A DNA stretch of 11,220 bases, from IMG/VR virus record IMGVR_UViG_2529292832_000020; one strand, written 5' to 3'. Source of the stretch: a virus (taxonomy: Duplodnaviria; Heunggongvirae; Uroviricota; Caudoviricetes). The position numbers and the translations under genes were made by a program. Of this stretch, positions 5,424 through 9,740 are shown one piece after another. Position 1 is the stretch's first letter; the number at the start of each line of letters is the position of its first letter. A model generated the notes under the pieces. That model searched no databases and had not been told where the DNA came from. It saw only the letters and a program-made list of their open reading frames with translations.

Positions 5424-5561
5424 TTTGCTGCTCCTCATCATATCGACCCTGCAAGGTCGGTTAGTTTCTCCACAAAACAGAGAAGAACACCTGCGGTGAC
5501 TGCCGCCCGGATGGATTGGGTTATGAGCCCGTCGTCCGGTGATGCTCTTCTCTGTTTTGTA

Positions 5562-5605
5562 AAAAGGACGGTACCAGCCGGAAGCAAGGGTACAAGCTGG
5601 TACCG
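5562..5605 (-). terminator. candidate intrinsic terminator or attenuator on the minus strand, upstream of the early-left operon
   Basis: On the minus strand, a 10-bp perfect stem (plus-strand CGGTACCAGC at 5569-5578 and GCTGGTACCG at 5596-5605) with a 17-nt loop is followed within 2 nt by UUUUU (plus-strand A-run 5561-5565). The large loop weakens the call. Confidence 0.35.
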
Positions 5606-5827
5606 CCAAGACTACACACAGCATAAAGTTGTGGTGCCGGGTGCCTCCCGGTGCCTGGCGAAGGTTGTACACCAGACGGGTGGGTATCCACAGAAGGTCG
5701 ACTGTCAGCCTCAACCTTAACCCGCGTGCGCTGAGCCGCATTCACCACAACGCTAAGGATTCTCTCTGGTTGAAAATACTTAGCTGTTATGTGCCTGCTT
5801 TTAGCCACATCAGGCGAGGTGGACCTG

Positions 5828-7869: not shown

Positions 7870-8439
7870 ATGAGGCTAATCGTGGGTAAGCATCACTGGA
7901 AAATAGAAAAACAGCCTGAGTGGTACGTGAAAGCTGTCAGAAAAACTATCGCGGCGTTGCCGGGTGGTTACGCTGAAGCGGCTGACTGGCTCGATGTAAC
8001 AGAAAACGCTTTATTCAACCGCCTTCGTGCAGATGGCGATCAGATTTTCCCGCTGGGATGGGCAATGGTTTTACAGCGTGCTGGTGGCACTCACTTCATT
8101 GCTGATGCTGTGGCGCAGTCTGCAAATGGCGTCTTTGTGTCTCTTCCTGACGTCGAGGATGTGGACAACGCCGATATTAACCAGCGTCTGCTGGAAGTCA
8201 TTGAACAGATCGGCAGTTATTCAAAACAGATTCGTTCAGCAATCGAAGACGGTGTAGTGGAACCGCATGAGAAGACAGCAATTAACGACGAGCTGTATCT
8301 CTCAATTTCGAAGCTGCAGGAGCATGCAGCACTTGTCTACAAAATTTTTTGCATTTCAGAAAGTAATGACGCCCGCGAGTGTGCAGCTCCGGGCGTCGTG
8401 GCGTCGATTGCTTCTGGTTGTGGAGAAACTAACGCATGA
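7870..8439 (+). CDS. phage-186-CII-like regulatory protein (189 aa)
   Basis: Follows cro. The central segment [51 protein letters not shown] aligns in pattern with my recollection of phage 186 CII. The start could instead be GTG at 7882, which has GAGG 6 nt upstream. Confidence 0.6.
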
Positions 8440-8774
8440 ACAGTTTAACAACACACTACCGTCGCTCGCAACTGATTGCGCTTCCTGTACCGGGTGGAAA
8501 AGCGAAGGTGGAATATTGCTATGCAGTGAATGTACCAGGTGACAGGGAAATTGTAACCCACAGCTTTGCAGAGTGGGCTGTGGGTGATTTCAACCGGCAG
8601 AAGGAGACAGTCCTTTGCGACAAGTTAACCGCTGGTTCAAAGATCACTACGGAGTGCCCGTCAGAGTCATTCGTTGGGAGCCGGAAACACAACGGGTTAT
8701 CTACCTCCGCGAAGGTTATGAGCATGAATGCTTCAGTCCGCTCGAACAGTTTCGTCGTAAATTCAGGGAAATAG
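8436..8774 (+). CDS. hypothetical protein, possibly frameshifted (only the N-terminal ~60 aa look protein-like)
   Basis: ATG at 8436 overlaps the CII-like stop (ATGA) with GGAG upstream. From about 8610 onward the frame gives a Ser-rich low-complexity tail, while another frame (8615..8794) looks like real protein. Confidence 0.3.
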
Positions 8775-8794
8775 AGGTCGGTCATGAGCACTAA
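8615..8794 (+). CDS. hypothetical small protein from a TTG start (59 aa), or the C-terminal part of a frameshifted gene
   Basis: Open frame with AAGGAG 8 nt upstream of TTG at 8615; translation [59 protein letters not shown] has balanced composition. Overlaps the O-like start by 11 nt. Below the track's length threshold. Confidence 0.3.
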
Positions 8795-9740
8795 ATTAAC
8801 CGGCTATGTATGGGATGGTTGCGCTGCATCAGGCATGAAGTTATCCAGCGTGGCAATTATGGCCCGCCTGGCTGATTTCAGTAATGACGAAGGTGTGTGC
8901 TGGCCATCAATTGAAACCATTGCCCGTCAGATTGGAGCGGGGATGAGTACCGTCAGAACGGCTATCGCACGGCTGGAAGCAGAAGGCTGGTTAACGCGTA
9001 AGGCGCGTCGCCAGGGTAACCGCAATGCGTCGAATGTTTATCAGCTTAACGTTGCGAAGCTTCAGGCAGCGGCATTTTCTCAACTGTCAGATTCTGACCC
9101 GTCAAAATCTGACGCATCAAAATCTGACGCATCAAAATCTGACCCGTCAAAATTTGATGCGTCGAAATCTGGCAAAAAAGCGGGTTTTCACCCGTCAGAA
9201 TCTGGCGGGGATCCGTCAGTAAAATCAAAACATGATCCGTCAGATAAAAAACCTTCTCGTCCGGACGCTTCGCAACCGGACACGCAGACGGCTGAACAGG
9301 ATTTTTTAACTCGCCATCCTGATGCGGTTGTATTCAGCCCTAAAAAGTGCCAGTGGGGGACGCAGGATGATTTGACCTGCGCACAGTGGCTCTGGAAAAA
9401 AATCATCGCCCTGTACGAGCAGGCTGCCGAATGTGACGGCGAGGTGGTTCGTCCCAAAGAACCGAACTGGACAGCCTGGGCAAACGAAATTCGCCTGATG
9501 TGTGTACAGGATGGGCGTACTCACAAACAAATCTGCGAGATGTACAGCCGCGTCAGCCGCGATCCGTTCTGGTGCCGTAACGTGCTCAGCCCGTCGAAGT
9601 TGCGGGAAAAATGGGATGAGCTTTCCCTGCGCTTATCGCCGTCCGTCAGCACGTACACCGAAAAACGCGAAGACCCGTACTTCAAAGCCAGTTACGACAA
9701 CGTGGACTACAGCCAGATCCCGGCAGGATTCAGGGGGTGA
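8784..9740 (+). CDS. phage replication initiation protein (O-like; N-terminal helix-turn-helix domain, repeat-encoded linker, C-terminal domain)
   Basis: 318-aa ORF, ATG at 8784 with GAGG upstream. N-terminal ...SVAIMARLADFSNDEGVCWPSIETIARQIGAGMSTVRTAIARLEAEGWLT is a winged-helix replication-initiator domain; the central DPSKSDASKSDASKSDPSKFDASKS repeat is encoded by tandem DNA iterons, as in lambda O. Confidence 0.8.
   Translation: MSTKLTGYVWDGCAASGMKLSSVAIMARLADFSNDEGVCWPSIETIARQIGAGMSTVRTAIARLEAEGWLTRKARRQGNRNASNVYQLNVAKLQAAAFSQLSDSDPSKSDASKSDASKSDPSKFDASKSGKKAGFHPSESGGDPSVKSKHDPSDKKPSRPDASQPDTQTAEQDFLTRHPDAVVFSPKKCQWGTQDDLTCAQWLWKKIIALYEQAAECDGEVVRPKEPNWTAWANEIRLMCVQDGRTHKQICEMYSRVSRDPFWCRNVLSPSKLREKWDELSLRLSPSVSTYTEKREDPYFKASYDNVDYSQIPAGFRG
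9084..9255 (+). repeat. iteron array, probable replication origin embedded in the initiator gene
   Basis: Six tandem 15-bp units (consensus TCAAAATCTGACGCA) from 9088 to 9177, then a short A-rich stretch GGCAAAAAAG and further CCGTCAG-containing repeats (9191-9245). Confidence 0.6.

Follow-up and report, generated by a model that had tools for sequence, protein, structure and literature searches.

Is the short segment between the ymfL gene and the replication gene of an e14/SfII-type lambdoid prophage a single gene broken by a frameshift, or does it hold two small genes that share part of their DNA? The question was raised by a stretch of viral DNA of 11,220 nucleotides (nt) (IMG/VR record IMGVR_UViG_2529292832_000020, referred to here in its full length as the window), in which positions 8436-8794 are covered by open reading frames (ORFs) in two different registers. 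An earlier note, made from the sequence alone, had allowed for either a single gene of about 118 amino acids (aa) disrupted by mutation, sequencing error or programmed slippage, or a TTG-initiated gene of 59 aa lying over the tail of a mis-extended upstream ORF. We find two ORFs with separate starts that overlap by 160 nt (8615-8774) on the same strand in different frames, and conclude that they are very probably two real genes of the prophage: ymfM, previously annotated in e14, and a gene encoding a DUF4222 protein.

Two probable genes in different frames

The ymfM ORF (8436-8774, 112 aa; all features of this locus lie on the plus strand) starts at an ATG that is preceded at a distance of 10 nt by GGAG (8422-8425), a putative Shine-Dalgarno (SD) sequence identified by inspection. 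The part of the ORF that is not overlapped (8436-8614) encodes a conserved N-terminal domain of approximately 58-60 aa. The second gene (8615-8794, 59 aa) is in the -1 frame relative to ymfM, so that the YmfM tail is the +1 reading of DUF4222. The open stretch of its frame extends from 8588, just after a TGA (8585-8587), to the TAA at 8792-8794; its SD sequence, AAGGAG (8601-8606), lies 8 nt upstream of the TTG start codon (8615-8617). In the dual-coding segment, DUF4222 codons 1-53 correspond to YmfM residues ~61-112, and the ymfM stop codon, TAG (8772-8774), is built from the ATA of DUF4222 codon 53 and the G of codon 54. The earlier description of an ORF from ATG 8436 that is protein-like for about 60 codons and then Ser-rich was confirmed in both coordinates and composition, and the peptide that it quoted was correct; the second frame, open from about 8588 to 8794 with AAGGAG 8 nt before the TTG at 8615, was likewise verified in the sequence.

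The product of the ymfM ORF is identical to Escherichia coli K-12 YmfM at 111 of 112 residues, matching the e14 gene b1148 ("cell division inhibitor YmfM") and, over residues 1-112, the protein family phrog_1170 (E-value: 7.6e-70). Its two halves differ markedly in character. The N-terminal ~58 residues, which match phrog_20047, retain 60-78% identity across genera and are modelled by AlphaFold2 (AF2) as three strands and two helices with a predicted local distance difference test score (pLDDT) of 55-73. The last ~52 residues are Ser/Thr-rich (11 Ser) and vary in sequence across genera; AF2 assigns no secondary structure to residues 68-112 (pLDDT 32-40), and this tail is predicted to be disordered. 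The model of the whole protein is weak (pLDDT 53). The same type of tail is found joined to at least three types of N-domain, and the PHROGs database holds distinct families for the 112-aa ORF, for a 63-aa form that consists of the N-domain only and for DUF4222. Pfam contains no model for YmfM, NCBIfam contains none for YmfM or DUF4222, and PDB sequence searches with the YmfM and DUF4222 proteins gave no matches.

The 59-aa product is identical to WP_001250269.1, which is annotated as a coding sequence by the Prokaryotic Genome Annotation Pipeline (PGAP). It scores 67.3 bits against the Pfam family DUF4222 (PF13973; cut-off 27, E-value: 8.6e-19), with residues 2-53 covering profile positions 3-52 of 53. 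Homologues in many Enterobacteriaceae are stand-alone proteins of 59-70 aa, and in an alignment of 27 of them the N-termini coincide with the TTG codon. A search with DUF4222 retrieved 214 loci, all of which have a start codon at the position aligned with 8615 (ATG in 125, TTG in 86 and GTG in 3), and nearly all of the 49 distinct upstream sequences carry a purine-rich, SD-like motif at -14 to -7. The AF2 model of DUF4222 is a small SH3-like beta-barrel (pLDDT 84); a structure search with this model returned generic SH3, KOW and Tudor barrels only (E-value ≥ 0.03) and gave no clue to function. In Phytobacter sp. V91 (locus L006, about 2680-2700), a TGA occupies DUF4222 codon 7, a Trp position, while the overlapping YmfM-type ORF of 113 aa is intact, so that the ymfM frame alone has survived in this natural example.

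Frameshift, error and slippage

To join the two frames into one product, a frameshift would be needed between 8588 and 8615. In favour of an ancestral gene broken there by a frameshift mutation, or of an error of assembly or sequencing, four database proteins of 102-119 aa join both halves in one frame. No two of them share a junction, however, and each has 1-14 member sequences, as compared to thousands for the unfused halves. At ≥99% identity, 496 E. coli records match the 601 nt surrounding the site, and DNA identical to that of the window is present in hundreds of complete genomes as well as in phage isolates, SfII and SfIV among them. The presence of the same DNA in so many independent genomes refutes the reading as a frameshift or assembly error. 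All 140 distinct homologous sequences have the two-frame state, and the arrangement extends over Escherichia, Klebsiella, Citrobacter, Enterobacter, Pantoea and other genera. We give a broken ancestral gene almost no credence. Programmed -1 ribosomal frameshifting at 8588-8615, which would yield a YmfM-N::DUF4222 fusion of ~118 aa by a mechanism like that of lambda G/GT or dnaX, is scarcely more attractive and we consider it highly improbable. The DUF4222 frame does have the appropriate -1 offset and is open from 8588, and a small predicted hairpin pairs AAGGAG with UCCUUU. Against this, no slippery heptamer of the form X XXY YYZ occurs anywhere in the ymfM ORF, including 8588-8615, and there is no homopolymer of five or more bases in the ORF. 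The predicted fold of 8570-8670, around the DUF4222 start, is no better than that of shuffled sequences (z = -0.96), and the hairpin sequence is not conserved in other lineages. A start codon and an SD sequence are conserved at the DUF4222 N-terminus, and each half is found without the other in other phages. The single gene of about 118 aa envisaged in the earlier note is thus refuted by the identical genomes, the 214 of 214 aligned starts, the missing slippery site and the separability of the halves. A fold of 8730-8830, containing the ymfM stop and the replication-gene start, was also no better than shuffled sequences (z = +1.52).

Selection in the overlap

The two frames of the overlap are under very different constraints. 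Among close relatives, the ratio of nonsynonymous to synonymous change (pN/pS) is 0.03 in the non-overlapped N-region of ymfM. In the overlap it is 0.01 for close pairs in the DUF4222 register, with 0.12 for pairs that differ at 15-25% of nucleotides, and ~10 in the register of ymfM; the polymorphisms located there thus leave the DUF4222 protein unchanged and alter the YmfM tail. Synonymous change in DUF4222 is not slowed by the second frame (pS 0.084 in the overlap versus 0.066 in the N-domain). The YmfM N-domain and DUF4222 are thus both under strong purifying selection. The YmfM tail shows no amino-acid conservation, and stop codons are nevertheless excluded from its frame.

This exclusion is seen in all 140 distinct DUF4222 coding sequences, in which the ymfM (+1) frame is open to nt 157 (133 sequences) or nt 163 (7 sequences); in most, a stop at nt 5 or 11 closes the +2 frame. 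When DUF4222 was recoded synonymously with the codon usage of the flanking genes, the +1 frame was open in 3.5% of trials (range 0.1-18%), and windows of 53 codons taken from flanking phage genes have an open +1 frame in 16% of cases. The product of the open-frame probabilities over seven clusters defined at 15% nucleotide divergence is 6e-10, and a very conservative permutation of codons within the gene gives 5e-7 over 12 clusters; both values overstate the independence of the sequences. The TTG-initiated gene of 59 aa overlapping the upstream tail, as proposed in the earlier note, is upheld, but its view of the upstream ORF as mis-extended is not, given a frame that is open in every sequence and ends at a conserved stop.

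The codon choices of DUF4222 show how the frame is kept open. Codons of the form NTA or NTG, which would form a +1 stop when followed by A or G, are never used at codons 4, 18, 28 and 43, each of which is followed by A/G; about 69, 73, 76 and 16 uses, respectively, were expected. In the window these codons are V4 (8624-8626), V18 (8666-8668), V28 (8696-8698) and L43 (8741-8743). At codons 16 and 19 they are likewise never used when A follows (about 23 and 5 expected), and GTA, GTG and ATA are present there solely before C (Fisher p = 5e-4 and 2e-4). This pattern of stop avoidance at the level of codons does not depend on the independence of the sequences. The reverse is seen at codon 53, where NTA followed by A/G is found in 133 of 139 sequences by way of the rare codons ATA, TTA, GTA and CTA; the DUF4222 residue varies between I, L and V, and the TAG or TAA of the ymfM frame is conserved despite this change. 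One oddity that hints at an extra constraint is the use of ATA at Ile29 in 94 of 139 sequences.

Stand-alone, distant DUF4222 genes that no ORF runs into served as a control. In those of phages CharmingMan and EKP1, +1 stops occur within 19-26 codons and GTG-ATT is used; the open +1 frame is therefore not intrinsic to the DUF4222 family. Two other phages were seen to have an open +1 frame over DUF4222 with no upstream gene entering it, of 67 codons in Providencia phage PSTCR8lys (L223, 1172-1375) and of 89 codons in Yersinia phage YeP1 (L227, 1178-1447). These could be due to chance, at the baseline of about 16%, or to an unrecognised ORF.

An antisense ORF of 90 aa on the minus strand (8519-8791), in codon register with DUF4222, was also considered. 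With stops interrupting it in all but 64 of 140 homologues, it was dismissed; it is probably a codon-aligned artefact of rare TTA, CTA and TCA codons.

Junction with the replication gene

Downstream of the overlap, the replication initiator gene (O-like/primosomal, HTH_36; 8784-9740) has its ATG in the ymfM frame, embedded in the His-Glu codons of DUF4222. The distance from the ymfM stop to this ATG is 9 nt in the window and 6-9 nt in nearly all related loci, where the next gene is also in the ymfM frame. At least five unrelated types of replication gene follow the ymfM/DUF4222 junction. The C-terminus of DUF4222 varies in length (59-72 aa in total) because its frame reads into these differing replication genes.

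Replication genes of these five or more unrelated types were observed to begin nearly always with Met-Ser, the ATGAG (8784-8788 in the window) being the CAT GAG (His-Glu) of DUF4222. A mosaic module boundary therefore lies exactly at the replication-gene start codon.

Loci in which DUF4222 is missing have a similar junction. Providencia phage PSTRCR_117lys and Hafnia phage yong2 carry stand-alone N-domain genes (63 aa and 59 aa, respectively) between cII and the replication gene with no DUF4222 in between, and both genes end on the replication-gene start as ATGA. In Atlantibacter and Entomohabitans loci from which DUF4222 is deleted, ORFs of 75 and 78 aa end at or 8 nt past the replication ATG, only a short, unrelated tail being left. 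In all of the architectures compared, the YmfM-type ORF thus terminates on the replication-gene start.

A possible mechanism follows this layout. The first 58-60 or so codons of ymfM encode the small conserved domain, and the remaining ~52 codons are the +1 reading of DUF4222, which would itself be translated independently from its own AAGGAG and TTG. DUF4222 would represent an insertion across which ymfM reads, the relatives that lack it having the N-domain abutting the replication gene. Ribosomes that start on ymfM would terminate beside the ribosome-binding site of the replication gene, and this could lead to coupling by termination and reinitiation or to a cover of ribosomes on the mRNA. 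If selection acts on the point of termination at the replication gene, then the ymfM frame must stay open wherever DUF4222 intervenes. We infer, tentatively, that selection may preserve translation through DUF4222 in order to keep this coupling or ribosome cover. With somewhat less confidence still, the 3' half of ymfM might be described as a "translated spacer", kept free of stops for the passage of ribosomes across DUF4222 and not for the sake of its peptide.

The alternative frame of DUF4222 was also seen in another setting. In phages mEp460, ST64B, Stx1_499 and yong2, a stop-free +1 frame over DUF4222 runs into an Ash (PF10554) domain, which is followed by a Rha (PF09669) antirepressor domain in the first three and not in yong2. 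Proteins of 227-385 aa annotated as "antirepressor", "transcriptional regulator" or "Ash" therefore have at their N-terminus a leader encoded by the DUF4222 gene in its alternative frame. The stretches concerned are 1052-2203 in mEp460 (L222), 1058-2215 in ST64B (L231), 1175-2197 in Stx1_499 (L228) and 1202-1885 in yong2 (L224). A YmfM-like N-domain precedes the leader in mEp460 and ST64B, and DUF4222 is unannotated in the records of all four phages.

Alternative roles for the ymfM tail

Two other readings accept that DUF4222 is real and differ in what they make of the YmfM tail. The tail may itself be a functional, disordered, Ser/Thr-rich peptide, acting as a linker, a degradation signal or a region of interaction for division inhibition. 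A frame that is held open at a fixed length, the predicted disorder and the occurrence of the same tail on several N-domain types are all in keeping with such a role. So is the bias of DUF4222 towards C-ending codons (73% versus 56% in flanking genes and 69% in N-domains), which favours Ser, Thr, Ala and Pro in the tail, although the bias is too weak to indicate selection on tail composition. The pN/pS of ~10 and the undiminished synonymous change in DUF4222 are difficult to reconcile with a functional peptide, viable phages carry the N-domain without any tail, and the loci that have lost DUF4222 keep just a short unrelated one; we therefore consider this reading rather unlikely. According to the other, only DUF4222 is functional in the overlap, and ymfM is a gene of ~60 aa whose run-on to 112 aa is accidental and inconsequential. 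An unconstrained, disordered tail, the 16% of genes expected to have an open +1 frame and the failure of PGAP to call the ORF would all fit. An accident does not, however, account for a frame without stops in all 140 sequences, which represent 7-12 diverged clusters, for the avoidance of NTA and NTG according to the following base or for a stop that is conserved by means of rare codons while the DUF4222 residue changes, and control DUF4222 genes without a run-in ORF carry +1 stops. Even if the run-on were accidental, ribosomes from 8436 would reach 8774. An inconsequential run-on is thus very unlikely.

Several points weigh against our own interpretation of two genes, with an overlapped half of ymfM that is held open by selection. 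The translation of either ORF is predicted from sequence comparison, and, as the tail is under no amino-acid constraint, a function of its peptide cannot be demonstrated. At a baseline of 16%, a single sequence whose +1 frame stays open for 53 codons is nothing unusual and proves nothing by itself; it is the Pfam match of DUF4222 and the comparative data that lend significance, and the argument from the open frame rests on related sequences that are incompletely independent. CTG is never used at DUF4222 Leu43 though it would not form a stop (it would place Trp in the tail), which hints at some other constraint and could also be taken to favour a functional tail. The openness of the +1 frame in PSTCR8lys and YeP1, which have no run-in gene, is a further observation that the interpretation does not account for. 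The stop codon of DUF4222 also overlaps the replication-gene start and could couple by itself, which weakens the need for read-through of ymfM.

Annotation conflict and the SfiC assignment

The K-12 reference annotates ymfM without DUF4222, though the DUF4222 ORF of K-12 is intact (NC_000913.3, about 1204001-1204180). PGAP calls DUF4222 alone and treats 8440-8614, where the conserved YmfM N-domain is encoded, as "intergenic". The two principal E. coli annotations are thus in conflict here, and the evidence is that both genes are real. Phage records were seen to annotate one gene, the other gene or neither (e.g. YeP1, Pantoea AH07 and Eeyore).

The overlap has a bearing on the identity of SfiC. 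YmfM is the proposed SfiC, an SOS-inducible division inhibitor: Ansari et al. (bioRxiv 10.1101/2020.11.19.390815) expressed the ymfM ORF from pBAD24, observed filaments that lacked Z rings and identified the gene with sfiC, treating it as a single gene of 112 aa. For the e14/ymfM region, transcript induction only has been reported. The insert of pBAD24-ymfM ends at the ymfM stop and contains the DUF4222 SD sequence, TTG and codons 1-53, which encode the whole Pfam domain. The ΔymfM deletions also remove the DUF4222 SD sequence, start and codons 1-53, and the clones from the original screen span both ymfM and DUF4222. As the clones carry and the deletions remove coding sequence of both genes, these experiments do not distinguish between the two products, and the division phenotype may be due in part or entirely to the nested DUF4222 protein.

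Single-base changes would separate the two products. C8621T places a stop at DUF4222 codon 3 (Q3*) and is silent in YmfM, and T8626A truncates YmfM (L64*) and is silent in DUF4222 (V4). T8615C combined with CAGAAGGAG>CAAAAAGAA would weaken the start and SD sequence of DUF4222, leaving YmfM unchanged.

No paper linking ymfM with DUF4222 or with the overlap was found in the literature searched, which did not cover the journal version of the ymfM paper. Nor was a description found of the frequent nesting of DUF4222 in the frame of another gene (the YmfM tail, or the Ash-Rha leader in mEp460, ST64B and Stx phages). Each of the two genes is represented in databases already; as far as was searched, it is the maintained dual coding and its bearing on sfiC that are undescribed. 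The locus appears to be a clear natural case of a long alternative frame that is kept by selection against stops while its amino acids drift, and it bears on the detection of overlapping genes and on translational coupling as a constraint on the exchange of phage modules.

Organization of the surrounding prophage

The window represents E. coli chromosomal DNA in which proA and a tRNA-Thr gene run into the e14/SfII-type prophage. The prophage is inserted at the tRNA-Thr gene (1369-1444) beside proA, with the integrase gene adjacent (1459-2577). Its early region consists of CPS-53-type yfd genes and an e14-type immunity/replication region, in which ymfM follows the immunity genes ymfK and ymfT and is flanked by ymfL and the replication gene. 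The upstream neighbour ymfL (7870-8439, plus strand), which encodes a CII-like regulator (Pfam Phage_CP76, NCBIfam phage_reg_YmfL), starts at 7882 according to PGAP, and its TGA (8437-8439) overlaps the ymfM ATG as ATGA.

Two further features of the window were recorded. Beside yfdP, PGAP annotates a "frameshifted" hypothetical protein on the minus strand at 5438-5748 in identical genomes. Within the O-like replication gene, a 15-bp unit (TCTGACCCGTCAAAA) is repeated 5.3 times (9093-9171) and encodes SDASKSD repeats; by analogy with the lambda O gene, these may be origin iterons.

Comparison with known systems

The closest counterpart is ymfM of e14 (b1148): the ORF is the same, with 1 of 112 residues different, and it likewise has ymfL and the replication gene as its neighbours. 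Similarly, the nested protein is a full-length member of DUF4222 (PF13973/phrog_1343, WP_001250269.1). In lambda Rz/Rz1, both polypeptides encoded by the overlapping segments are functional. Like this pair, the window has one gene nested for the most part in another, with both on one strand, in different frames and with separate starts. It differs in that the embedded gene is the conserved one, while the overlapped half of the host ORF is without amino-acid constraint, has stops excluded and has a fixed termination point.

At trpB-trpA and other ATGA junctions, translation is coupled by termination and reinitiation. The likeness here is an upstream stop within a few nt of a downstream start, as ATGA in the relatives that lack DUF4222 and at 6-9 nt in the arrangement with it; the difference is that the upstream ORF would first read 160 nt across another gene, with coupling being proposed from the sequence layout. 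Lambda G/GT and dnaX share with the window a -1 offset of the frames and a short interval in which both are open. In contrast to these, the ymfM/DUF4222 overlap has no slippery site, a predicted hairpin region that folds no better than shuffled sequences and is not conserved in other lineages, and a second frame with a conserved start of its own.

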